Of a DNA stretch of 64,000 nucleotides, positions 18,763 through 33,157 are shown one piece after another. The notes beneath the pieces were generated by a model. That model saw only the letters and a list, made by a program, of their open reading frames with translations. It searched no databases and had not been told where the DNA came from. The stretch spans positions 128,001 to 192,000 of the forward strand of contig OY762897.2 of NCBI GenBank assembly GCA_963666515.2. The letters are read 5' to 3'. Source of the DNA: Candidatus Binatia bacterium. Lineage in GTDB: Bacteria; Desulfobacterota; Binatia; UBA9968; JAJDTQ01. The translations under genes were made by a program, and so were the position numbers. The number at the start of each line of letters is the position of its first letter. Within the stretch, counting starts at the first letter, position 1.

Positions 18763-21700
18763 TCCGTCCAACCCCGCATCATGTGCACTTCCTTCGACAA
18801 TCATTGCCGTTGAAATTCAGTTGATGCGACGCGAAATCCGGTCGCGGAGGTCGGGCGGGGAAGACGCAGTGAGATAACGCCTGCCGTCGGAGGTGAGGCT
18901 CCGTCCGCCTGGGCCGACGCGGATCAGGTTTAGACGGGTCAGATACTCCGACACGATCACGAAGTCCGCCCTGTTCGAGATTCCCAGTGCCCGGCGAATT
19001 TCTTCCTCCGCCGAAGCGCCCCGTGTTCTCAGCAGCTTGAGATATTCGACATGTTCCGAGGTAAGGCCGTTGCCGTCGATGCCTTGTGTATCAAACCACC
19101 GCGCCACGGCGGTTACGTTCATCAGTTCCGCCACTTCCTCCCTGGTAGGCACGCGTCCCAGCCTGTGCTCCGCCGTGCCGTAGAAGCTCGCTACCAGTGG
19201 CTCAAGGATGTTGACGCTTGGTCGCGGACTGCATTGCATGCGCGCCGCAATTTCAATGCAGGTCTCTCGACTCAGGCCGGCTTGCCCGAGCTTCTCCACG
19301 GAGCGGAGCCAGACGATCCCGGCCATCTCCTCAAGCGTGTAGGACCGCAGGATCGTCTTGTCCGGTCGGCTCTGAAACGCTTCCGATAGCCTGCCAGGAT
19401 CCGTTGTTGCCAGAAGAAAGACGACGTCTTCGAAACTATAGACCACGTTGCCGATCGTGGTGTCGCGCCGCTCGTCCAAGGCGCTGAGCAGCACCGTGGA
19501 AACCGGGCTTGCCACCGCATGCACCTCGTCGATGAAGATCAGGCAGGGATCGACGGTAACGGCGTCCGACGCGTCCGCCGGCAGTTTGCCAGCCTCCACC
19601 AAGCGCTCGACGATCATTTCCGGTCGGCGAAGATCGGCGCCGTTGAATGTAATCGGTTCCAACTGAAGCAATCGTTCGGCGATCCGGCGAGCGAGCGTCG
19701 TCTTGCCGACCCCGGCGGGGCCAACGAACAGCTTGTCGAGGAACCGCTCACCCCAACCCTTGGCCTTGCGCGCCTGATTGTCCAGTTCCTGGGCGATCTC
19801 GTGCTGGCCAACCATTCCCAGCGCATTCACCTGCGGCGGCCAGACCCGTCCCTCTCCCGACCCTTCTTCTGCTTCACCCGCTCGGTCGAACGGCGTTGAC
19901 GTCACCGACGCGTCCGTCCCATCCGGACGGTCGATCCCGGTCGCCGCATCGGCGACGGGCGACGACGGTTCATCCCCGGCCACTACAGTCGTTGTTCTCT
20001 CGGTTCTGCCGCTATTTCCCGATCCCGACGCCGCTCCGGAAGCACCGTCGGTCGGCGACGTCACCTCTTTCGCCGGAGCCGCTACGGGATCGCCGCTCGA
20101 ACGCTGCGCACCCCTGTCTTCTCCATCCGAAGCCTCTCCATCCGCACCGTCGTCTTCCGGCGGAGCCTTCGTCACGAAATCACTGCCAAACAGTTCCTCG
20201 GCTGCGCTTTCCGTGATTGTCCTGACCGTGATCGGGATCTGTTTCCCCTGGAGCGGCTTCACCCGGGCCGTTTCCGTCGACCGGAGCTTCACGACAACGA
20301 TCTCGCCATCGACCCGCAGGGCCGGCGGTTCAGCACTGTCGCCGAACAGGTCCTTGAGCAGCGGCCCCCAAATCTTGCGTTGCGCAACGTCGTCCTCATC
20401 TGCACCCCAGCGGTTCGATGCCGCCCTGACCAGGACCTCTTTCAGCATCTCCGACCGCGGTGCCGCAAACGGTCCGGCGCCACTGACCGCGCTCGACAAC
20501 ACCGCCGCCGTCTGCTCGATCTGATCGGCCGCATGACCGATCAGCTTGGCCTCGTCGGACAACGCCGCTCCTCCCGTCGTCTTGACTTCGATACAGGTCA
20601 ACCGGAACGACCCGTCTCCCGCTCGGCGAACCGCGATCAGGTCGCAGCGCTTGCCGCCACCCGCCGGTCCCAGCTTCAGCCAGAGGCGCGCGATCTTGTC
20701 GTCCACCGAAGCCACCAGCGCATCCGGATCCTCGCTTCGCACCTGGCGCGCGGCGAGCAACATACCGACGAACCCAAGCACCGACGCATTGTCGGGCAGT
20801 CCGGACCGTTTCTTGATCATGTCGAGCAGTCCTGCACCGACCAGGTTCACGCCCTGCCGCAGGACTTGGCCCAGGCTCTCGTTCGTGATGGTCAAATTGC
20901 AGTTGCTGAACGCGGTACGCATCAGGGTCGCCAACCGACCATAGTCCGCCGCGCTCAGCAGCACCTGGCGATGCCCTTCCTTGTGCCGCAGAAGCCGGAT
21001 CGACTTCATGCCGTTCTCCGGCGGCAAGGCGCGATCCGCGAGCAATACCCAGTACGCCGGCGGTCGATCTTCGAGCAGCAGGCGGTCGATCGTCGAGCGC
21101 AGCCGATCGGCGTCCGCGGAAGCAATCATCGTGCTGTCGCGCTGCTCCTGCTCGAATTCGTGAATCATCATCACGAAATCGGAAAAGGGCGGTTCACCCG
21201 GGTGCGGGCTCAGACTGATATCGCCCAGCATACGATCCACGACGATCTCGTTGCGCACGCAGAACGGACTCATCGGCAGCAGGCTCTCGACACGTCGACG
21301 CCGGACCGAAATCGCGGATTCATCGAAGATCGCGATCAGGTGCTGAGGTCGTTTCGACAGATCCTCTCGTACCAGCCGATCGAGGTTCTCATGGCTATCG
21401 CGTGCGACGCGGATATCGAGCCTCCCGGCAGAAACCTTCTCGTAGACCAAGTCCTGTGCCCTGCCTTCGAGGGTCGATGCCGCGATCAGCCGGTCTCTGT
21501 GCCCCGCCGTAGCGACGATCGTCACATCGAGCGCCGCAAGGCGCCGCGGCGTGTTCCGCCGCTCGTTCAGGAACTTTGTCAGCCGCTCCAGTAGCCGCGC
21601 CGCTTCCGGCGGGTTGACGAGCGTCAACCGAAGCGGCCGCGGATGGTTGGGGTAGAGCATCACAAAGTGATCGAGCGCCAGGACCAGCGTCTCCATGCCG

Positions 21701-23391
21701 TCGGCGCTACTGATCGCGTTATGCAGGTTCTCGAACGTTGCGAGACCGCAAATGGTGTTTGCGACGGGCAGCAGTTGATTGAGTCCCCGGCCTTCCGGTG
21801 TGGCGCCGGTCCTGATCACGCCGACAAAATGTTCCGGCCGGCGTAACTCTTTGATTACGACCTTTCTGTCGCTCTCGGACATCGGCCCGGCATGCGAGAG
21901 ATCGCGCAGGATTTCACCGAAGCGCTGATACCGCCACAAATGCAGAGGATGCAGCGGCAGCATCACCGCCTTGGCGCGGACCCCGCCGTCCGGACCCGCC
22001 ATGCGGACCTGTACTAGGTCGAGCGTCAGAATCGCGTCCAACGTCGCCTGAGCCCACTCGCGCGACTGGTCCCAGACGGCGCGGTAATTCTTCTGGACGG
22101 CCCCGTAGAGTTCGGTTGCCACTGCAAGATAGCGTGCGCAGTTCGCACACGTTTCAGGATGCGTGTCGAGCCACTCGCGCGGATGGATGAGAAGCGGCCG
22201 CACCATGTCCGCCAGGGACGCGCGCGCAGCGACGAAGTCGCGCCACATCTCGGCAATCGGGCGTCGGCAGGCTTCGGCAACCGCGTCCACCTCGTCCCAC
22301 GCTTCCAGCAGTGCCTCGATCGAATAGGCGACCCCGTCGTGTTTCCAGACCGCCTCCGGGTTCAGGAACACGGGATCGAACTCGGCATGGCGCGCCAACG
22401 CCTGCGGCAGGTCGTCAACGTCGACTTCCATGAACCCGCCGAACCGGTCCGTGTCGCAAAAGGCCGTAACCCAGTCGATGATCTTGGAGTCTACCCGTTC
22501 GTCGAGTCTGGCGGTGCCTTGGCTTGTCTCCTGATTGGACGCGAGCCGATCTCCGTTCTGCTCGAATTCCTCCCACGCCGCCTCGAGCGCCTCGCCTAGC
22601 GCGGCAAGGTCTTCCTCCCGCCCCTCAAGCAGCGCGTCCACCGCCATGTCATGCAGATCGGGCTCGTCCTCCTCCTCAGTGTCATCAGCCTCGTCATCGG
22701 GTTCGTCGTCAACTTCCGGATCATCGGGCTCCGGGCCGTAAGGGTCCGGCTTGTCGGGGGGCAGGGTTACGATTTGCTCTGCATCCTCAGGGGTCAGACC
22801 TGCATCGGGGCGGCCGCGTCGATATGCCTCCAGCCGGTCGAGTGCCCCGCTCAGCCGTTCCGCCGTCGCCGCGTTGCTGTAACGGGTCGCACGCTCACGC
22901 CGCTGCCTGATATCCCCCGGCGACATGCTGGTGACGCGCTCGCCGATCCGCAGATTGTATTCGAGCCGCTTTGCTAGGTCATCCGCCTCGAACAATCGAG
23001 GGTCGCGCAGCAGTCCAAGGGCGGGAAGAACGTCACGCGGCCTGCCTATCGTCCCGTCTCCGACATCGCTCCATTCGGCGAGAAAGACCGCGATGCCCTC
23101 CAGGGACCGAATCGAGCTCAGCTCCCGCGCCTCGCGTAGCGTCTCGAGCAGCACCCGATGCTGCGGCGTCGCTGTGAACTCGGGTTCGTTTTCCGCCCAA
23201 CGCAGCAGAATGGCCGCGAGCTCTCCCGAAGAGGCACGAGAGAAGAAGCGCAGACCGTGGACGCTCGGATTGTATCCGCGCGCTAGCGCGACAATCCTCG
23301 GATGCCGTTCCCGATCGTTGCGCCACTCGGTGGCGACGTGGAGATCAAGCGTCAGGCCAGCCAACTCGTCGAGCCCTTTTGCTTCCGCTAA

Positions 23392-25463
23392 CCCAAGTTT
23401 AACAAGGGTATTTGAAAGTCGTTATAAATTGTGGGGTTAGCGGGGCGATTTTGGTCTTCTGGCACTACATTCTGGAGTTTTAACGGATAATTCTGGAGAG
23501 TTCAGACGGTCAACTTTTTGGTACCGCCGGGTGCAGGATTGAGGCCGAGAGCGTTGTAGATTTCAATCTGCTGGAGTTCGGCCTGGGTGGCCTTGCGGAC
23601 ATGGAGGGTGCGGCCGTTCTTGCGGCGGAAGGTGGCGGTGACCCGGTGTTGGCCCTGGAGTATGCGGCGCAAGGTGGTCCAACTAGCGGTCTCGCCCAAG
23701 GCGGCGAGGCGGCGGCGGATAATCTGCACGAGTTGGTAGGCGATGACGGTGATGAACAAATGGCCGTCGGAGCGGTGCTGCTTGTGGTGGAAGATGGGAC
23801 GCAGGCCGAGTTCGGACTTGAGGGAGCGGAAGACGGCTTCGAGATCGGTGAGCATGGTGTAAGTGTGCCAGAGGGTTTGCGGGTCCGAGTCGCCGAGGTT
23901 GGTGCGCAGACAATAGACGCCGGGATGAGTGAGCATGGTGCCCGGGCGGGGCTGGCGCTTCCAGGTGACGGCCACGGCCTTGTCGCCTTGGATGTCGGCC
24001 ACGACCTCGACCTGGTAATGCTGAGCGGCCCCTCGGCTTTGCTCCTGGATGCGCCCGATGCGCTGCCAGACATGGTCGAGGGCCTTGCGGGTGCGGGGGC
24101 GGGAGAGCCCCTCGTGGAGTTTTTGCAAGGCGCCTTCGAAGCGTGCGGCAAAGCGTTCGGCGATGCCTCGTTCTTTTTTGGCGCGAGCTTCGGAGTAGCA
24201 GTAAAGCCGCACCTCGTCGTGGTCGTCGTCGACGACCCGGTGCAGGTGAACCTTTTGGTGGGAACGGGTCTCGATGGCGGTAGCCAGTTCGGGATCGAAC
24301 AGCCGGGTGCGTTGGCGGCTGACCACCAGATAGCGGTAGCCGTGGCTGCGCAACCAGGCGATGTTGTTCTCGGTGGCAATGCCTGCATCCATCACCACCA
24401 CAGAATCGGCGGGTGCCTGGAGGGTTTCAAGCATGGATGCCAGTGTCTTGTCTTCGTCGGCATTGCCGGCAAACACTTCCGAGCGGCGCACGAAGCCGGA
24501 ACCGTCCAGCACCAGTCCCAGGGTGAGCAGCGGGCAGTCGCTGCGCTTCTCTTTCGAGTGCCCCCGCCTGGCCTTGGGCTGGCCTTGAGCTTCGCCCTCA
24601 AAGAAGGTGTTGGTGAGGTCGTACAGCGTCACCGTGTGCCTCAGGCTGAACAACTCCGTCACCCGATCAAACAGGTGATTTTCGATGGCCTCGCGATGGG
24701 CCATCAGCGTATCCGAGGCACGGTAGAGCCGCATCAGGCTCAGGCTCTCGAAGTCCACGCCGAGCAACTCGCCGAGAGCGCTGCGGTTGCACAACCACCG
24801 CCAAGTGGCCCGTTCCGATCCGGGCTGTGCCATGCGCCCGATGATCAACGCCAAGGCTGCTGCCCTTTGCCGACCGTTGAACCCCAGCCCCTCCAGAAAC
24901 TCATCCAGGCCGACCTGCCCCATAGCCCACAGTCCTACATGCTCCACCCCCACCGAGCGCGGGCGCACTAACTCCAACGAGTCCACATCCACCGCCTGCA
25001 CATCCCCTCCGCCGCCTTCCGCCCGAGGCGCCCGGCTCACCAGTTGCATGGCGATCCGTTGGGCCTCCCGTTCCACCTCTTCCGAACACCCCAACTCCAC
25101 CAGCACCGCTTGCGGGTCGATCAATTGTTCGATGCGCGTACACAACACCGCCCAATGTTCCAGCGCCACCGCGAAGTCACTGCCGAGATTGAGCAGGGTG
25201 CGCTGCCGCACCCGCCCGCCGGTGCGCTCGGAGCGCACCAAGCGGTGGGTGAAGTAGCTCTTGCCCCGGTCGGCGCCGCGGGTCTGGGTGCGGCGGATGA
25301 ACATGGGTGCAGGATATCAGAGGGCGGAACGAGAATCAACAGAATATTTCAATTATGGCACTACATCAGGCTCCCCAAATCCCTACCTCAATAAATACAA
25401 CAGCTTAGAAGCTACAGCCGTGCCCAAATACCCCAAAATCCCCACATTCATGTTAAAGATGGG
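23392..25463 (-). mobile_element. IS1634-family insertion sequence
   Basis: Imperfect terminal inverted repeats CCCAAGTTTAACAAG / CCCATCTTTAACATG (reverse complement), flanking duplication CTAA (23388-23391 and 25464-25467; possibly GCTAA), AT-rich ends and one transposase ORF. Confidence 0.9.
23502..25304 (-). CDS. IS1634-family DDE transposase
   Basis: RVRQRTLLNLG, LYDLTNTFFEG, RGHSKEKRSD, VVMDAG and LEAVFRSLKSELGLRPIFH motifs; 600 aa, apparently intact. Confidence 0.93.
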   Translation of the reverse strand: MFIRRTQTRGADRGKSYFTHRLVRSERTGGRVRQRTLLNLGSDFAVALEHWAVLCTRIEQLIDPQAVLVELGCSEEVEREAQRIAMQLVSRAPRAEGGGGDVQAVDVDSLELVRPRSVGVEHVGLWAMGQVGLDEFLEGLGFNGRQRAAALALIIGRMAQPGSERATWRWLCNRSALGELLGVDFESLSLMRLYRASDTLMAHREAIENHLFDRVTELFSLRHTVTLYDLTNTFFEGEAQGQPKARRGHSKEKRSDCPLLTLGLVLDGSGFVRRSEVFAGNADEDKTLASMLETLQAPADSVVVMDAGIATENNIAWLRSHGYRYLVVSRQRTRLFDPELATAIETRSHQKVHLHRVVDDDHDEVRLYCYSEARAKKERGIAERFAARFEGALQKLHEGLSRPRTRKALDHVWQRIGRIQEQSRGAAQHYQVEVVADIQGDKAVAVTWKRQPRPGTMLTHPGVYCLRTNLGDSDPQTLWHTYTMLTDLEAVFRSLKSELGLRPIFHHKQHRSDGHLFITVIAYQLVQIIRRRLAALGETASWTTLRRILQGQHRVTATFRRKNGRTLHVRKATQAELQQIEIYNALGLNPAPGGTKKLTV

Positions 25464-25678
25464 CTAACGCACGCAACTCCTTTTCCGTTGTGTCAACTCC
25501 CACCAGCGCTAACGAGAATCCTCCGGCCGGCAGACCTCCCGCCGACAGCGCTTGCAGCAGGCACGGAATATCGAACTCCGGAAGCCCCTCCCGTGCGAAA
25601 TCGTTTTCGTCTTCTAAGCGCGAGAGTATCCAGGCTGCCAAGGCCTGGCTGACTAGCGATGCAGCCGTACGCGGCATC

Positions 25679-27013
25679 TCAAATAAGCTCCTCTGCATCA
25701 ATGGCTACCAGCGTCAGACCGTCGGACGGTTCGACCGCCAGCCCCAGCCTGACAAGGAGTGCCTGAAAGGCAGTTGCGTTCGGAAGCAGGTCTTCATCCT
25801 GATCGAGAGGCCCGAACCGGTTTGCGCGCAGGTTGTCGCCATCCGCCGCGTGGGCCCCGACCACGACCGACCAGGTCGTTCTGAGCTGCGCCGCGAATTC
25901 CGGCAGCGTCATCACTTGATCCTTCTCGAGCAGGCTGTATGCCAGAACCCGAAGCGTGTCCGCCTGCAACTCGACATGCTTGTGCTTCGCGACCGCCGAG
26001 CGGGGCTGCACGATGCCGATCCGTACGCCCAGGTCCCGAAAGTGCTCGTCCAGCACCTGCCGCGCTTCGGCGGAACTAGCGAACACGGTCCAGTCGTCTT
26101 CCTGGATGGCCGAACCATTGTCGTCCTCGAATGCCCGGTCATAGCTGAACGAGAAGAGATCCAGCGCCCGGGTATAGGTCGCACGGCTCTGTGCGCGGAT
26201 CCTGGGATTGCTGCCCTGCAGTGCGTCGACAAGCAGAAGCGGTGAGTCGCTTCCCTGGCGCATCATGTAGGCAAACAGCCAGCAACAGAGCCCAATCACC
26301 ATGTAGCGCATCGAATAGTTGGACTGCAGCCGCTCTAGATTCGCCGCAAGCCGGCCGACCGCAATCGTGCAGTCTTCCATTCCCGACCCGATCCGCGCCA
26401 GCCGCTCCGGCTTGATTTCTCCATAAAGCTCGTCGTGTTTGTCGCACCATTCTTCGGCCACGTCGTCGAGCAGCGGCTCGCCAAACGCGGCCAAGGGCGG
26501 CGGCGGTAGCTCCAGCAGCCTCCTGATTCCTTCGAGCGTCTCTCTTCCCGCGGCGGTCGCTTCCAGGACTGAAAGGACGAAGCTTCCCGAGTACCCATGA
26601 TTCTTCGACCGGTGCGAGATGTAGCGGGTTGAGGGGGCGCTGTAGTCCGCGCCGAACGTCGAATAGGGAGGGTAAACGGCCGACAGTGCCGACCCGTCGT
26701 TGTTGTATGCCGCGTTCAAGTGCGCGCGCAACGTGCGGAACGCCTCCAGGTCGACCGACTGATCCAATATGCCGCGTTCAACCAGCAACGGATGAAGGCG
26801 GTCGGCGGGATACTCGTCGCGAACTCTTGGACCGTCCTTCGGCGCCGTCTTCGGCACCGACGCCTTGTTCAGGGATTCCAGCCGGTAGTAGCGGCCGGTC
26901 AATGCCAGAAGAAAACTCGTGGCGAAGTGGACGGGCTTCATGCGGAAGGGCTGATAGCCGAGGATGGCCCCATGCACGCGACGCACCGCATCTGTATCCC
27001 GTGCCCTAGCCAT
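25679..27013 (-). CDS. Hypothetical 444-aa protein, third gene of the operon (DndG/DptG-like position)
   Basis: Start MARARDTD at 27013 overlaps the upstream stop. C-terminus L.RLGLAVEPSDG resembles the DndG-type C-terminal SD motif as I recall it. Confidence 0.7.
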   Translation of the reverse strand: MARARDTDAVRRVHGAILGYQPFRMKPVHFATSFLLALTGRYYRLESLNKASVPKTAPKDGPRVRDEYPADRLHPLLVERGILDQSVDLEAFRTLRAHLNAAYNNDGSALSAVYPPYSTFGADYSAPSTRYISHRSKNHGYSGSFVLSVLEATAAGRETLEGIRRLLELPPPPLAAFGEPLLDDVAEEWCDKHDELYGEIKPERLARIGSGMEDCTIAVGRLAANLERLQSNYSMRYMVIGLCCWLFAYMMRQGSDSPLLLVDALQGSNPRIRAQSRATYTRALDLFSFSYDRAFEDDNGSAIQEDDWTVFASSAEARQVLDEHFRDLGVRIGIVQPRSAVAKHKHVELQADTLRVLAYSLLEKDQVMTLPEFAAQLRTTWSVVVGAHAADGDNLRANRFGPLDQDEDLLPNATAFQALLVRLGLAVEPSDGLTLVAIDAEELI

Positions 27014-28616
27014 AGCTGCGTACCCGCTCGAAGCGGCTTCTGTCCGCGCTGAGGTTAACTTGAATAAGCTCAAGGTTTTCGAGGTGGATAGACCAGACCG
27101 AGTCGCGCTCGCCGACCGTGCCCGCACTGAGCTTCTGGAGGAAGGCGTCCAGGCGGTGAATGTCCCGCTCCGGAATCAGCTTCCGCGGCAGGCCACGCGC
27201 CAAGCGGCAGAGCGTCCGCCAAAGCGGGAAATCGATTCTCAACCGCGGTGTTCCGGAGAGCCGGCGGGCCGTCAATGCGATGTGATCTGAGCGATAGTCG
27301 AAGCATCTCTCCAACCGCGCCGGCAGTCGAGGCACCTCGGTGACGAAATCATCCGTCGCCACGCGTTCAGTGGCGACGAAGGAGCGTGAGGGCTGCTCGT
27401 GAAAGCGATGACCGTTCCACAGGTACAGGTGCTGGTCCCGCGAATCGAAGTGGCGCGGGCAGTACGCAGCGTTGATGGCATCGACGAGATTTGCGACCAG
27501 CATCCGACCCGATCCTTTTCTGCCCTGCACGAGATCCTCGAACTCCTTCGCATCTGCATCGGCCAAGTCGAACACCTCCTCGCCCTTCTCGTGCTCGAAA
27601 TAGAACCGGCGCTTGAGCGCAGCGAAATTCTCCCAGTCGAGCATCGGATGTGGCGTCGGCACTGGGGCCTGCAGCACCCATCCTTCGCGCACCTCGGGCG
27701 CGCGAGCATCGAGCGCGGCGTCCCATACGGGATGGCTGCAACCTGCAGGATCGACTGCCTGCAAAGCCTCCGTCAAGTCGAAGCGGTCGTCCCGTTCAAA
27801 CAGGGCCTCCGAATACCAGTCCATGCGCTGATACTCGCCGTGCTCCTCCGTTCCGAACACCATTCGCGCGAACAGGATCCACAGCTCCCGCACCGTCGCC
27901 CGATGGCCGAGCGCCACCATGCGCTCGGCAAGCGCCCTCAGCCGCGCCCGCACCTGGGGATGGGCGAGACGTTCGACGTTCCGACGGACAACAGCCTCCC
28001 GCGGACTGGCCAAGGCCGTCTTCACTCCTTCGTCGTCAAGCAGCCTGTCCAGCATAGAATCGAAGAATTCGCCGCCCAGCGGGTTCCGAAGACTGAGGTC
28101 GATCACCACTACGTTGCCGGCGCACCCGGTGGTCTCATCGTCCCCGTAAGCCAGACGGTCCTGACACTGCCGCCCGACTTCCACCAAGTGTGGGGCTGAC
28201 ACATCGGCCATTCGCAACTGGTAAAGCGGATATTCGTTCGCGGCCAAGCAAAAGGGCCGCCCGCCCTCGATGGCCTCGCGCCACTTCTTCAGGATCGGAC
28301 CCGGATCGTCGCCGCGCATCTCGGCGGTCGCGTCCTCGACCACGACAGCGCCGACGCTTTCAAGGTCATGCTTCACGCGCCGCAGCAAGTGCGTTTTCCC
28401 ATCGCCGGCATTTCCGGTCACGACGACATTCCTGCCCGCCCGCACCTGCTCGCCGAGAAACCGTTCGATTCCGCTTTCGATATGCAGTCGGTCGAAATCT
28501 TCTTCGGTCAGCGCTTCCGCGATGGCTTCCCTGCCTGCCGCGGCAAGCGTGCGCCACAACTGACTGCCGTCTCGTACGCCCTCTGCCTTTGCCGTGCTGC
28601 CTCCCCCTTCACTCAT
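27006..28616 (-). CDS. P-loop NTPase, DndF/DptF-like, 536 aa
   Basis: VVVTGNAGDGKTHLL Walker A, VVEDATAE, LAANEYPL, VIDLSLRN and TVRELW; ATGA overlap with the upstream gene. Confidence 0.75.
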   Translation of the reverse strand: MSEGGGSTAKAEGVRDGSQLWRTLAAAGREAIAEALTEEDFDRLHIESGIERFLGEQVRAGRNVVVTGNAGDGKTHLLRRVKHDLESVGAVVVEDATAEMRGDDPGPILKKWREAIEGGRPFCLAANEYPLYQLRMADVSAPHLVEVGRQCQDRLAYGDDETTGCAGNVVVIDLSLRNPLGGEFFDSMLDRLLDDEGVKTALASPREAVVRRNVERLAHPQVRARLRALAERMVALGHRATVRELWILFARMVFGTEEHGEYQRMDWYSEALFERDDRFDLTEALQAVDPAGCSHPVWDAALDARAPEVREGWVLQAPVPTPHPMLDWENFAALKRRFYFEHEKGEEVFDLADADAKEFEDLVQGRKGSGRMLVANLVDAINAAYCPRHFDSRDQHLYLWNGHRFHEQPSRSFVATERVATDDFVTEVPRLPARLERCFDYRSDHIALTARRLSGTPRLRIDFPLWRTLCRLARGLPRKLIPERDIHRLDAFLQKLSAGTVGERDSVWSIHLENLELIQVNLSADRSRFERVRSYG

Positions 28617-30673
28617 CCGTTCGAGTCTCCCACCACTGGCTCTTCAGCCTCGCCCAGCGGTACAAAAACGTCCCGCGGCAAGGCGGCCATGCTGGACTGA
28701 TGACGAAGCCGACTGGCAAGCCAACGCCGGCGCCAGAAGGCCGCGATACGTTCCGTGGCGTCCTCGTATCCGTCCGGTGCCGCGACATAGCCTGGCAACT
28801 CCGTTACGCGCTCCTGCAACCAATCCCGCGCCTTCGGAAAGAGCGGAGCGCCGTAGATCAGGCGGTGATGTCGATGCTGGATCAGCTTGTCGGGATCGAA
28901 TCCCAGCTTGCGAAGACCCATCTTCACCTTGCGTAGCTTCGGACTCGTCCCTTCCCCGAAGACGCTGTTCACCTCCTTGAAATCGCGTTCGTAAGCGAGA
29001 TAGGCATCGATCGCCCTACTTGTATCCGGCGAGAATTGAATCGTCCCGAAGCCCGAAGTCTGACCGATCGCGTTGTAAGGGATGCTTTCCTGCTCCGGGG
29101 CGATCGTGCCCGCAGGCAACTGCAGCCGATTGTATTGACTGGAGCCGTGCACGTAGAGGCTGGTCGTGCCAAGATAAACAAGTGTGCTGTCGCGTATGAC
29201 GCGACGGTTTTTCATCTGCGACGAGATGATAGACGGACTTGCATATCGGCGTCGGTAGTCGGCGCTGACCTGCGGGCTAAGCATCAGCAGAGCGACCAGC
29301 TTACCACCAAGAATTCGATTGTACGGCGCGATCGCACCGCATGTCGTGATTTCAAGCAGATTGGCGCCGGCCCGTCGCCCCTTAAGCGCCTCCAGCACGA
29401 TATTGATGGCGCTTCCAACCTTGTCTTTCCCAAGCGCTGTACACGCGAGGTCAGGGTCGGTGAGTTCCTCCCGGTGCTGTGCGATGACGAGCCGGGCCGA
29501 GAGCAGGCGTGACAGTGCCAGGGCTCGCTTCTTGGCCACGAGCTGCTTGCGGGCGGCATGCATGCGCGCGTCGACGGACGCCTTGGCCTCCAGTTTAAGG
29601 ATGTCGTCATCGACCGGAGGAGCTGTTGCATCGTTCCAGAGATCGGCCTCGAATTGATCCTGCGTAGAACCGGCGACCTCCCTGAGCAGAGTTTCCCGCA
29701 ACTTCGAGAATTCTTGGCTGCGCAGTGCGAGCCGACGAACCACCGCATCGTCGGGAGATTCCACTTCTTCCGCAGTTACGAGATTGGTCCAATCGATTTC
29801 CGCGAGCGACGTCTCGAGTTGGTGTTCCAGCCACCGAACTTCCTCTCTCAGCGCCGCCTTGCCGTTGGCTGCGGCCCCGATGAACCGTTCGACGATAGCT
29901 GCGAGGTGCCATCCGATGTATCGCTCGCGCTTCTCGCCCATTTCGAGAGGACAATTGTTCAGCGCGGCGATACCGATGACTGGATGCGCCCGATGCGCGG
30001 CGTCTCTCACAAGGTAAAGGAGCTGCCGTCCCGGGGTCGACACTTGCGGTATCGACCAAGTGTATCGGAAATAACGCCAAATCTCGCGGAGCTGCCGTCC
30101 GGTCGTCGGATCCACACTCCCGTCCGCTTCCTGAAGATACGGCTTGATGGCGTCGCCCAGAGCCGCCACCTTTTCATCGCCTTCAAGGTCGCGTGCAGGC
30201 GCGAGCCTTGCTGCCAGCTCCGCTCCGTCCGCCGTGAGCAGTCGCACACTACGCCGACCTGAACGGTCTTCTCTTTCCATCCTGGCAATAAAGTCCAAAA
30301 CGGCAGGGTGCCGTTTCTGCTCATCGACAATGGGCTGCAACTCACCGCGTAACATCTTCTTGCTGGCTATAATCTCCGATGTTGGCCGTCCACCGACCCG
30401 TTCCTTGCGATTCTCCAGAGCGAATCCGTAGCCTTGTTCGGCGATACGCCAGCGCAGCCGCGCGAGATCGGACAGAACCCTGATACACGCTTCATAGGCC
30501 AACACGTTTTCTTCGCTGCACTTTGCTGATTGGCACCAATTTATCTCTTCCTCCAATGCACCACTAATGTCGTTCGCGTTGCGCGCACGCTGGGCACACG
30601 CGAGTCTCATTGCAAACGCATGAAACCGCTCAGCGGATTCTCCATCCAGGGGTGGAAATATCGGTACGATCAT
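28613..30673 (-). CDS. DruA (DUF4338)-family protein, 686 aa
   Basis: IWRYFRYTWSIP..STPGRQLLYLVRDAA..HPVIGIAAL, CGAIAPYNRILGGKLVALL, TTSLY..GSSQYNRL, GQTSGFGT and FGEGTSPKLR are signatures of long DruA/DUF4338 proteins. Confidence 0.8.
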   Translation of the reverse strand: MIVPIFPPLDGESAERFHAFAMRLACAQRARNANDISGALEEEINWCQSAKCSEENVLAYEACIRVLSDLARLRWRIAEQGYGFALENRKERVGGRPTSEIIASKKMLRGELQPIVDEQKRHPAVLDFIARMEREDRSGRRSVRLLTADGAELAARLAPARDLEGDEKVAALGDAIKPYLQEADGSVDPTTGRQLREIWRYFRYTWSIPQVSTPGRQLLYLVRDAAHRAHPVIGIAALNNCPLEMGEKRERYIGWHLAAIVERFIGAAANGKAALREEVRWLEHQLETSLAEIDWTNLVTAEEVESPDDAVVRRLALRSQEFSKLRETLLREVAGSTQDQFEADLWNDATAPPVDDDILKLEAKASVDARMHAARKQLVAKKRALALSRLLSARLVIAQHREELTDPDLACTALGKDKVGSAINIVLEALKGRRAGANLLEITTCGAIAPYNRILGGKLVALLMLSPQVSADYRRRYASPSIISSQMKNRRVIRDSTLVYLGTTSLYVHGSSQYNRLQLPAGTIAPEQESIPYNAIGQTSGFGTIQFSPDTSRAIDAYLAYERDFKEVNSVFGEGTSPKLRKVKMGLRKLGFDPDKLIQHRHHRLIYGAPLFPKARDWLQERVTELPGYVAAPDGYEDATERIAAFWRRRWLASRLRHQSSMAALPRDVFVPLGEAEEPVVGDSNG

Positions 30674-31122: not shown

Positions 31123-32346
31123 ATGTACTATACGCGCACTCTTGAATCGTACTGGCTGGAGGTCTCGCGGCAGTTCCCCGTGCTGCTGCTGACCGGCCCA
31201 CGTCAAGTCGGGAAGACTACGCTTCTGCGGCACCTTGCGGAAGACGCTCGCCGTTATGTCTCCCTCGACAATCCGGTGCTGCGTGATCTGGCGAATGACG
31301 ATCCGGCGCTCTTCTTGCAGCGGTACGAGCCGCCGGTGCTCATCGACGAGATTCAGTATGCTCCCGGACTATTGCCGCTGATCAAGGTGATCGTGGACGA
31401 CAATCGCCAGCCGGGGCTGTTCTGGCTGACGGGGTCGCAGCAGTTCCAGGCCATGAGGGGCGTTTCCGAGTCCTTGGCGGGGCGGGTCGGAATCATCAAC
31501 CTGCTGGGCTTCTCCTCCCGCGAGCGACATCAACGTGATGCCGCCGTGTCTCCTTTTCTGCCGACGCGGCCCATTCTGGCCGAGCGCCAGCCGGCGCTTC
31601 GCATGAGCGGCCTCGACGAGGTGTACCGCGATATCTGGACTGGTGGATTTCCCGGGCTTGTTGCCGGCCCGATCAACGACCGCGAGCTGTTCTACAGTTC
31701 CTACTTGCAGACTTACCTTGAACGAGACCTCCGCGCCCTGTCACAGGTCGGCAATGAAATGGCGTTCCTCCGCTTTCTCAAGGCATGCGCGGCGCGAACC
31801 GCTCAGATGCTCAATCTGTCCAACTTGGCCCGCGACGCCGACGTAAGCGTCAACACCGCGAAGAACTGGCTCTCGATCCTGCAGGCGAGCCTCCAGGTCG
31901 AGCTGCTTCAGCCGTACCATGCCAATGTCACGAAGCGTCTGGTCAAACGGCCGAAGCTGTACTTCCTCGACACCGGCTTGTGCGCGTATCTGACGGAGTG
32001 GACTTCCCCCGAGACCCTGGAGGCCGGCGCCATGTCGGGAGCCATGTTCGAGACCCACGTGGTGGCGGATATCCTGAAGAGTTGGTGGCACAGGGGGAGA
32101 AGGCCGCAGTTGTACTACTACCGCGACAAGGACGGCCGGGAGGTGGACCTGCTGTTCGTCGCCGATGGGACCCTTTATCCGGTCGAGATCAAGAAGTCGG
32201 CTTCGCCCCGGAGATCCTGGTTGCCGGCCTTCGCCGCTCTACGGCGGCTGGACATGCCGGTGGGCGAGGGGGCGGTCGTGTGTCTCTGTGACCAGCCGGT
32301 CCCCTTGGACGACCATGTCAATGCTGTCCCGGTCGGGCTGGTGTAA
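31123..32346 (+). CDS. AAA_14 ATPase with DUF4143 (restriction-endonuclease-like) C-terminus
   Basis: LTGPRQVGKTT, IDEIQYAP, LTGSQ..ESLAGR, KLYFLDTGL and EVDLL...PVEIKKS. Confidence 0.9.
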   Translation: MYYTRTLESYWLEVSRQFPVLLLTGPRQVGKTTLLRHLAEDARRYVSLDNPVLRDLANDDPALFLQRYEPPVLIDEIQYAPGLLPLIKVIVDDNRQPGLFWLTGSQQFQAMRGVSESLAGRVGIINLLGFSSRERHQRDAAVSPFLPTRPILAERQPALRMSGLDEVYRDIWTGGFPGLVAGPINDRELFYSSYLQTYLERDLRALSQVGNEMAFLRFLKACAARTAQMLNLSNLARDADVSVNTAKNWLSILQASLQVELLQPYHANVTKRLVKRPKLYFLDTGLCAYLTEWTSPETLEAGAMSGAMFETHVVADILKSWWHRGRRPQLYYYRDKDGREVDLLFVADGTLYPVEIKKSASPRRSWLPAFAALRRLDMPVGEGAVVCLCDQPVPLDDHVNAVPVGLV

Positions 32347-32462: not shown

Positions 32463-32521
32463 AATACCCCCTGCGGTTTCGACCGCAGGGCGCGGGGCCT
32501 CTTCGGAGGCCCTTGCTTTTT
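32463..32521 (+). ncRNA. Candidate ~60-nt structured RNA or attenuator upstream of the NYN gene
   Basis: Hairpin CCCTGCGGT-TTCG-ACCGCAGGG (32469-32490), then GGGCCTC-TTCG-GAGGCCC (32495-32512) followed by TTGCTTTTT. Confidence 0.55.
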
Positions 32522-32533
32522 CTACGGGCGTTG

Positions 32534-33157
32534 ATGCGTACCTTCGTCTATGTCGACGGGTTCAATCTGTACTACGGAGCACTCAAGGGCACGTCATGGA
32601 AATGGCTGGATCTGCCTGCTCTGTTCGCGAAGGTGCTGCAGCCGCACCACGACATCCTGACGGTCAAATATTACACAGCGCGAGTGTCTGCCACGCCCGC
32701 CGACCAGTCGAAACCCCAGCGACAAGACGTCTATCTCCGCGCCCTTCGGCACTATCGACCCGAGGTTGACGTGTATTTCGGGCATTTCCTGAGTCACGCG
32801 GTGCGAGCACCCCTCGCTCGTCCGGTGGGGAACCGGCGTGTGGCAGAGGTGATTCGCACCGAGGAGAAGGGCTCGGACGTCAATCTCGCAGTTCATCTGC
32901 TCAATGACTGCTGGCTGGACGCGTACGACTGCGCAGTGGTGGTCAGCAACGATAGCGATATCGCGGAAGCGATGCGCTTGGTAAGGCAGTATCACGCCAA
33001 GCGGATTGGTCTGGTGACGCCGGGAAGCAGCAGACCGTCGCGCCAACTGATGGCACATGCGGATTTTTCGAGGCGTGTCCGGCCCAATGCCCTGCGGGAC
33101 TCGCAACTGCCGGACCCGATACCGGGCACCAACATCCGAAAACCCGCAGGCTGGTAG
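32534..33157 (+). CDS. NYN domain (LabA/DUF88, PIN-like) RNase
   Basis: MRTFVYVDGFNLYYG, EEKGSDVNLA and VVSNDSDI catalytic acidic motifs. Confidence 0.9.
   Translation: MRTFVYVDGFNLYYGALKGTSWKWLDLPALFAKVLQPHHDILTVKYYTARVSATPADQSKPQRQDVYLRALRHYRPEVDVYFGHFLSHAVRAPLARPVGNRRVAEVIRTEEKGSDVNLAVHLLNDCWLDAYDCAVVVSNDSDIAEAMRLVRQYHAKRIGLVTPGSSRPSRQLMAHADFSRRVRPNALRDSQLPDPIPGTNIRKPAGW

Follow-up and report, generated by a model that had tools for sequence, protein, structure and literature searches.

A four-gene DruA-containing operon of a Candidatus Binatia bacterium, probably a divergent DndFGH/SspFGH-type system with a RuvB-like motor

The window analysed here is a stretch of 64,000 nucleotides (nt) from a Candidatus Binatia bacterium (assembly GCA_963666515.2, contig OY762897.2, positions 128,001 to 192,000 of the forward strand). 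On its minus strand, at 18817-30673 of the window, the list of open reading frames (ORFs) and the reading of the sequence showed four overlapping or abutting genes of the same direction, and we consider that this locus probably belongs, as a divergent member, to the stand-alone DNA-restriction systems of the DndFGH/SspFGH family, with a RuvB-like motor on its large effector. Gene 1 (28613-30673) encodes a DruA/DUF4338 protein of 686 amino acids (aa), gene 2 (27006-28616) a DptF/SspF-like P-loop (kinase-like) subunit of 536 aa, and gene 3 (25679-27013) a predicted DndG/SspG-like DNA-binding subunit of 444 aa, counted from the ATG at 27013 (the ORF as listed, 25679-27127, has 482 aa from a GTG). 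Gene 4 lies in two pieces on either side of an insertion sequence (IS): a 5' piece at 25464-25677, which holds the first 71 codons, ends with 6 bp that are one copy of the target duplication and aligns to the N-termini of intact homologues, and a 3' piece at 18817-23393 (ORF as listed, 18817-23364, 1,515 aa); joined, they encode a DndH-like protein of 1,594 aa. Genes 1 and 2 share a 4-nt ATGA overlap (28613-28616), genes 2 and 3 overlap by 8 nt (27006-27013), and genes 3 and 4 are separated by 1 nt at 25678, the ATG of gene 4 being at 25677. The original prediction, made from the sequence of the window, had described four co-oriented, coupled genes with these overlaps, this gap and these sizes, and all of it was confirmed from the coordinates and the sequence.

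The family assignment was carried by genes 2 to 4, which we compared with canonical DptF/G/H sequences from Massilia, Aliivibrio, Priestia and Bacillus plasmids. The gene 2 family (37 sequences) aligned with seven canonical DptF sequences at 98.7% by hhalign (E 1.5e-16, 474 columns), and gene 2 as a single sequence reached 91.4%. The PADLOC model of SspF matched 37/37 members of the family (best E 1.8e-20) and that of DndF 27/37; gene 2 of the window alone matched both models in its N-terminal part only, the DndF matches being weak. The Walker A motif TGNAGDGKTH, which the original prediction had quoted, was present and conserved in the 37 sequences, with T67, G68, N69, G71, G73, K74, T75 and H76 invariant and A70 and D72 at least 90% conserved. 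By its sequence, gene 2 is thus taken as a DptF-like P-loop subunit.

Gene 3 on its own had no family match in Pfam, PADLOC or NCBIfam. Its AlphaFold2 (AF2) model had a predicted local distance difference test score (pLDDT) of 91.4 and a predicted template-modelling score of 0.92, and residues 13-440 of it superposed end to end on residues 14-441 of the DndG chain of PDB 7exx (VIA-align: Z 14.5, 320 residues, root-mean-square deviation 5.8), whereas the next chain had a Z of 3.4. Foldseek of the same model against the PDB also ranked DndG first, with E 0.081. In the gene 3 family, PADLOC SspG matched 19 of 48 sequences (best E 1.4e-8), but the window's own gene 3 was without a match, and tblastn with gene 3 against 72,556 plasmids gave 0 matches. 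The model indicates that gene 3 is a DndG-fold (triple winged-helix) DNA-binding subunit. It is also predicted to bind gene 2: the pairing had ipSAE values of 0.88, 0.85 and 0.88 in three runs compared with 0.00 for the best of three controls, the runs had at least 90% of contacts in common, and the partner pLDDT was at least 88. The ipSAE mark used is attained by 58 of 80 solved complexes and by 2 of 110 mismatched pairs, counts that are rough here since custom alignments were used. As a separate observation, the language-model neighbours of gene 3 included one cluster in which 24% of the members had PF26611 MAD7, and PADLOC mad8 matched the HerA/FtsK parts of gene 4 relatives, which hints at a kinship between subunits of the G/H type and MAD7-MAD8 of the MADS system; the available passages of two MADS papers stated no tie to Dnd or Ssp.

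The first ~1,146 residues of gene 4, here called the core, had no family match in Pfam, PADLOC or NCBIfam. The AF2 model of this part (residues 1-1146), built from a 60-sequence alignment, had a pLDDT of 87.5. A wide profile of the core (60 sequences, with motors removed on both sides) aligned with the N-terminal regions of six canonical DptH proteins at 97.8% by hhalign (E 9.2e-13, 543 columns), and six cross-controls of non-cognate subunit pairs were all at 4.2% or less. The match began at the LHPLHLWRY motif, ran across a methyltransferase-like domain and reached the EVK nuclease motif. Genes 2 to 4 had been predicted to follow DndF, DndG and DndH, and this held for all three of them, by profile alignment for F and the H core and by structure for G.

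Two domains could be recognized in the core of gene 4. The first is a class-I methyltransferase-like Rossmann domain (20944-21714, minus strand, residues ~630-886), which VIA-align placed on S-adenosylmethionine methyltransferases with Z of 10-12.3 over 142-207 aligned residues (41 rows with Z of at least 10.0). This domain is probably inactive, because its GxGxG loop was not visible. We considered V(N/D)PP (662-665) as a methyltransferase catalytic motif and rejected it: judged from the secondary-structure string of the model alone, it follows strand 1, which is the motif-I position, and not strand 4. The second is a PD-(D/E)xK nuclease core (20482-20724, minus strand, residues ~960-1040) with D987 and E1005-V-K1007; among 60 diverse homologues D987 was invariant and E1005, V1006 and K1007 were at least 90% conserved, and in hhalign the motif lined up with the EVK motif of canonical DptH. 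Gene 4 is a DndH-like effector: its DptH-type core, which contains the methyltransferase-like domain and the PD-ExK nuclease, is followed by a hexameric-type ATPase. A low-complexity linker of ~115 aa (residues ~1147-1262) stands between the two. Sequence searches against PDB chains, with single proteins and with profiles, gave only P-loop noise for genes 1-3 and the gene 4 core, and a weak Hsp104 stretch (E 0.0012) was taken as chance.

The ATPase is RuvB-like AAA+ with a C-terminal winged helix (18856-19815, minus strand, residues ~1263-1582). Pfam matched it with AAA (5.5e-17), RuvB_N (2.6e-7) and RuvB_C (3e-4), and gene 4 had no FtsK or HerA match in Pfam or PADLOC. NCBIfam RuvB NF000868 matched with E 7.5e-19 and 67.8 bits against a cut-off of 282, and TIGR00635 with 56.5 against a cut-off of 299; the motor is therefore RuvB-like and not a RuvB orthologue, since its score is far under the cut-off of the RuvB family. 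Aligned to RuvB structures, GPAGVGKTT, IFIDEVH, ATT and SR were in place, and the Walker A, Walker B, sensor-1, arginine and sensor-2 positions were all present. The claim that the ATPase is RuvB-like AAA+ and not of the HerA/FtsK type was thus borne out by Pfam, NCBIfam and structure alignment, and the motor occupies the position where relatives have HerA or FtsK. It shares with RuvB the AAA+ fold, the RuvB_N/RuvB_C signatures and intact catalytic motifs, and each of the two would be expected to pump double-stranded DNA as a hexamer, but this one comes after a nuclease-bearing core of 1,150 aa and a disordered linker in the same protein, with no RuvA/RuvC context. We found no relevant paper linking RuvB with DndH, DptH, SspH, DndFGH or SspFGH, and none relevant for "RuvB-like" with phage defence as judged on titles and the openings of abstracts. 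In the work of Rakesh, Aravind & Krishnan (NAR 2024, PMC10853773; this and the other papers cited here were available in part) "RuvB" occurs 0 times in the main text, supplements not covered, and all 7 of the "AAA+" passages covered, out of 9 occurrences, concern other proteins. The portions at hand of a BREX-diversity preprint contained 0 "RuvB" and 0 "DruA", and those of a YprA preprint 0 "DruA", "DUF4338" or "GNAT". The stand-alone DndFGH family, F subunits that bear GNAT/DUF4338 and the "capture" of motors are already known in kind. The new element here is the AAA+ motor of RuvB type that the DndH-like core carries, a combination which we did not find in print (the supplements of PMC10853773 could hold cases).

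To see how general the arrangement is, related loci were collected in two scans and classified by hidden Markov models built for this analysis. A one-genome-per-species scan with gene 3 gave 12 loci of 39-91% identity, which belonged to Alphaproteobacteria, Rhodospirillales, Vicinamibacterales, Pseudomonadales, Lamprocystis, Competibacteraceae and an unclassified Gammaproteobacteria genome, and a metagenome scan with the core (14-sequence alignment) gave 79 additional loci. The neighbourhood survey proposed with the original prediction came out in its favour: where the sequence upstream of the core extended for at least 5.1 kb (49 loci), 46 kept the order gene 1-gene 2-gene 3-core, and the remaining three (L039, L043 and L092) were deleted remnants. 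Because the same order was held by 46 of the 49, the four-gene arrangement is not chance.

The motors differed among these loci. The genome loci had 10 RuvB-type motors and 2 lost to the contig end; the metagenome loci had 41 RuvB-type, 17 HerA-type and 4 FtsK-type motors and 17 cut off or absent, shares that are biased because the scan patterns came mostly from RuvB-type sequences. When 1.84 billion representatives were searched with the core by hmmsearch, 390 proteins had E<=1e-3, and 16 long distant relatives picked from them had FtsK_SpoIIIE (10), HerA/DUF87/TrwB (5) or no Pfam match (1), with AAA in 0; their C-termini matched the PADLOC SspH or DndH models, but their cores did not. In a FastTree tree of 54 cores (38 RuvB-type, 12 HerA, 4 FtsK), from which 36 loci were omitted because their core was broken or no motor could be seen, at least five changes of motor type are required, and the RuvB-type loci L039, L049 and L048 fell inside a HerA clade with local support of 96-100%. 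The exact number of changes is uncertain because of FastTree and the long branches. The same nuclease-bearing core has thus repeatedly swapped HerA-type and RuvB-type motors, which are different classes of ATPase. Such repeated exchange suggests either that any ring-shaped pump of double-stranded DNA suffices or that the motor tunes the DNA structures that are attacked, and the family provides natural motor-swap pairs on closely related cores, such as L039/L049 (AAA+) and L047/L038 (HerA), which fall in one clade. One of the FtsK-type relatives, P0165 (1,760 aa), ended in an additional Lon_C protease domain (Pfam E 5e-47) which also matched PADLOC BrxL, so that a DndH-like protein has here gained a BREX-like part.

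Gene 1 had been assigned to DruA/DUF4338, and this was confirmed by PADLOC DruA1 PDLC00001 with E 2.8e-126 (residues 42-666 against model positions 44-649 of 675) and by Pfam DruA PF14236 with E 1.9e-29; it is the one DruA in the whole genome. The stretch CGAIAPYNRILGGKLVALL quoted from it corresponds to residues 445-463 and was found to be present and largely conserved among 37 sequences, in which 104 residues of the protein were at least 95% conserved. In 35 of the 48 related loci that hold homologues of both genes, genes 1 and 2 form one stop-free frame, and they are separate only within the close clade of the window, so the ancestral form would be a DUF4338-DndF fusion, and the separate DruA gene a local split and no new coupling. 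Gene 1 is therefore the N-terminal module of the F subunit, which was split off in this clade and is still translationally coupled through the ATGA overlap. The original prediction had called the locus a candidate undescribed system, and in this respect it has to be corrected, since the DUF4338(GNAT)-DndF fusion is listed by Rakesh, Aravind & Krishnan among the N-terminal additions to DndF. The available text of that paper describes DruA/DUF4338 as GNAT-like, in agreement with the predicted acyl-CoA motif, and groups the fusion with the variable N-terminal effector domains of DndF (HEPN, NERD, kinase), for which protein targets are proposed (PMC10853773). DruA is in this way tied to a second system, physically fused to what may be a nucleotide-binding sensor subunit.

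Compared with DndFGH/DptFGH, known from E. coli B7A and Salmonella, the locus has the same F-G-H order, similar sizes and a ring ATPase at the C-terminus of H, and its F is homologous, its G has the same fold and its H core is homologous over ~540 columns. It differs in the gene 4 motor, which is not of the HerA/FtsK class, in the extra DruA/DUF4338 module and in the dnd modification genes, which are not in the genome. The absence of DruE and of a DndC-type modification gene, noted in the window by the original prediction, extended to the genome: in this assembly (98.35% complete) there was no match to TIGR03183 DndC and no DruE-like gene, the two genes with a PAPS-reductase fold were >3 Mb from the locus, and the sole MZB/DUF1998 match was a 687-aa frame ~236 kb beyond the end of the window. 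Since DndFGH is reported to be often decoupled from dndABCDE (PMC10853773), the missing partners may not be defining. The forms of DndF and DndH in that paper share with ours the DUF4338-F fusion and, on one core, HerA/FtsK motors of different sources ("HerA/FtsK capture" of DndH), but the clade of the window has two overlapping genes in place of the fusion, and the captured motor is a RuvB-type AAA+. SspFGH of Vibrio (Wang et al., mBio 2021, PMC8092258) is close as judged on PADLOC models, since SspF and SspG were the best matches of the defence library for the gene 2 and gene 3 families and the FtsK-type relatives of gene 4 matched the C-terminus of SspH with E down to 7.6e-88; however, gene 4 itself had no SspH match, the SspH models matched only the FtsK part of the relatives, and no sspABCD-type partner (no DndC-like gene) was found.

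Several results weigh against this assignment. The narrow core profile of 10 sequences missed DptH (0.4% by hhalign), and the wide 60-sequence profile alone succeeded; the first ~430 residues of gene 4 are outside the DptH match. By sequence, gene 3 and canonical DptG gave 0.2% (alignment) and 0.3% (single sequence) in hhalign, and NCBIfam at E<=0.01 had no Dpt-named model for genes 2-4. The PADLOC check suggested by the original prediction was answered in part, with DruA1 for gene 1 and N-terminal SspF/DndF matches for gene 2, while the DndG, DndH and SspH models missed genes 3 and 4, and the SspH/DndH models missed the first ~1,100 aa of every relative scanned. DndH model PDLC02684, scanned in 401 genomes of the window's phylum, matched only from ~1108 on (the nuclease and HerA part) in 15 genomes and had no match in our genome. 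The divergence from DndFGH/DptFGH is so large that the DndH and SspH models miss gene 4 altogether and no Dpt-named model appears in NCBIfam. Of the structural likeness expected, that of gene 3 to DndG 7exx was found, but Foldseek of the gene 4 core against the PDB gave nothing at E<=1e-3 and only weak methyltransferases. The GNAT assignment of gene 1 comes from the literature and the defence role from homology and neighbourhood, and not only the window's copy but also several of its relatives are damaged, which is compatible with a costly system or with a decaying one.

If the locus belongs to the DndFGH/SspFGH family, F, G and H would form one complex in which DNA is chosen by G and the DNA-binding parts of H, and F would sense a nucleotide or a cue of the invader. 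The AAA+ ring would pump duplex DNA and the PD-ExK site would nick or cut it, as a nickase and translocase activity is reported for DndFGH (PMC11662687; model in PMC10853773), and DruA would probably be an acyltransferase-type co-effector or regulator. Self and non-self would be told apart independently of phosphorothioate, because the DndC search found no phosphorothioate-making gene in the genome.

Another explanation, put forward in the original prediction, is a restriction-modification-like system in which DruA marks self DNA or self protein by acyl transfer and F-G-H attacks what is unmarked. Several observations would suit it: DruA was fused or adjacent in 46/46 complete loci, its 104 highly conserved residues suggest, from sequence, that the enzyme is active, no DndC or other modification partner exists in the genome, and the family is GNAT-like in the accessible text of PMC10853773. 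But DruA and F are one polypeptide in 35 of the 48 loci, a state more in keeping with a co-effector or sensor domain than with a modifying enzyme that acts on its own, and those who described the fusion class DUF4338 with variable effector domains, for which they propose protein targets (PMC10853773). In the flanks of 22 loci no modification enzyme was conserved beside the system, and so the role of self-marking module given to DruA did not find support there. To our knowledge, no acyl mark on DNA has been described. We consider self-marking by DruA unlikely.

For the flanks, 104 ORFs from the 22 loci were scanned (10 of 114 selected were dropped for size, including all of L074). They contained mobile genes (integrases, resolvases, transposases, a coupling protein of a type IV secretion system (T4SS), Toprim, ArdC and a group II intron) and defence-type genes (Cap15, patatin, AbiEii-like, Fic); no gene was conserved alongside the operon, and neither a methyltransferase nor a dnd/ssp modification set recurred. 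The frequency of integrases, resolvases, transposases, T4SS coupling protein, Toprim and ArdC, together with copies of 71-91% identity across phyla, would also fit four genes that serve a mobile element in DNA processing, segregation or exclusion, with a motor that pumps the element's own DNA. HerA/FtsK and RuvB motors also work in DNA transfer and recombination. However, the mobile genes in the flanks of the 22 loci vary, with none that always accompanies the operon; restriction has been published for DptF/G/H, to which the subunits are homologous; and the conservation of the PD-ExK nuclease suits attack better than transfer. A service to a mobile element therefore appears quite improbable. 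A variant of Druantia type I (DruABCDE) anchored on DruA, to which the strong match of a full-length DruA homologue and the PGAP name of a haloarchaeal homologue would point, was rejected as scarcely credible, as it is contradicted by the DptF/G/H homology of genes 2-4 and by the lack of any PADLOC DruB, DruC, DruD or DruE match on them.

Beyond the assignment to the DndFGH/SspFGH family, one further proposal was considered, to which we give little probability: the RuvB-type motor would be more than a neutral stand-in and would steer the nuclease to branched or recombining DNA (replication forks, Holliday-type junctions in phage or plasmid DNA), and the conserved DruA acyltransferase would be a new self-protection or trigger. 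Under "HerA/FtsK capture", the explanation given for DndFGH-type systems, the motor would set the point in segregation, conjugation or packaging at which the DNA of an invader is caught (PMC10853773, from the part available). If the proposal were true, this would be a stand-alone restriction that reads DNA structure and an acyl mark, not base or backbone modification.

The copies of the operon are spread unevenly. A gene 3 homologue was found in 0/400 sampled other genomes of the window's phylum (E<=1e-10), and copies with 71-91% identity occur in different phyla; the empty sample of its own phylum and the high cross-phylum identities indicate horizontal transfer. The G+C content of the operon region was 0.59-0.64 compared with 0.66-0.68 in its flanks. 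That the operon sits on a horizontally acquired island is judged likely as a part of the family reading as a whole. What emerges is a rare, widely spread four-gene system of Bacteria and a haloarchaeon that is annotated merely as "DruA", "hypothetical", "AAA family ATPase" or "FtsK", and for this reason the defence-gene models used miss it or call it Druantia.

An IS1634-family element of 2,070 bp (23394-25463, minus strand; Pfam DDE_Tnp_1) interrupts gene 4 after codon 71, and the system is for this reason almost certainly inactive in the genome studied. The transposase of the element (23502-25304) is an intact 600-aa frame that matched NCBIfam IS1634 family NF033559 with E 2e-87, its ends are imperfect terminal inverted repeats, and the 6-bp direct repeat GCTAAC brackets it at 23388-23393 and 25464-25469. 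The insertion looks recent, since the transposase frame is intact and the 6-bp target duplication is clean. Three further copies of the element with 92-94% identity were found in the genome (C1 near 1.46, 1.62 and 3.12 Mb), one of them of about half length. Without the element and one copy of the repeat, gene 4 has 4,785 nt and codes for 1,594 aa with 0 internal stops, and the restored protein was 86% identical (1,373/1,592 positions) to the intact 1,592-aa homologue in L006.

Damage was also seen in related copies. In L007, gene 1 contains a transposase, and both gene 3 and the AAA+ part contain insertions. In L008 the frames of genes 1-3 are broken and 3.7 kb of DNA is inserted in the motor, in L006 the frame of gene 1 is broken, and L043, L078 and L092 are remnants left by deletion. 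Such frequent damage may reflect a fitness cost; the frame breaks could be assembly errors instead, if the genomes are long-read assemblies.

On one side of the operon are hydantoinase and GNAT genes, and on the other a DUF4143/AAA_14 ATPase, an NYN-domain gene and an amidohydrolase. The DUF4143/AAA_14 ATPase (31123-32346, plus strand) and the NYN-domain (RNase-like) gene (32513-33157, plus strand) adjoin the operon within the low-G+C stretch and may be additional cargo of the island.

FtsK-type versions were seen on haloarchaeal plasmids (L108; H2, H3, H8 and H10). On the plasmid of Haloplanus sp. GDY1 (L108), the four genes are annotated as DruA, hypothetical, hypothetical and DNA translocase FtsK, and a DUF262 gene then follows. 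PGAP calls gene 1 of L108 "Druantia anti-phage system protein DruA", which would mislead automated counts of defence systems. In the 22 loci with flanks, a HATPase_c_3 protein of ~770 aa was directly downstream of the operon in three (L036, 13112-15436; L059, 13657-15951; L072, 13872-16178) and two genes downstream in a fourth (L017, 15776-18079), with HATPase_c also in L036, L059 and L072 but not in L017. This protein accompanies RuvB-type and HerA-type versions alike; it may represent either a second module linked to the operon or a separate defence system next to it.

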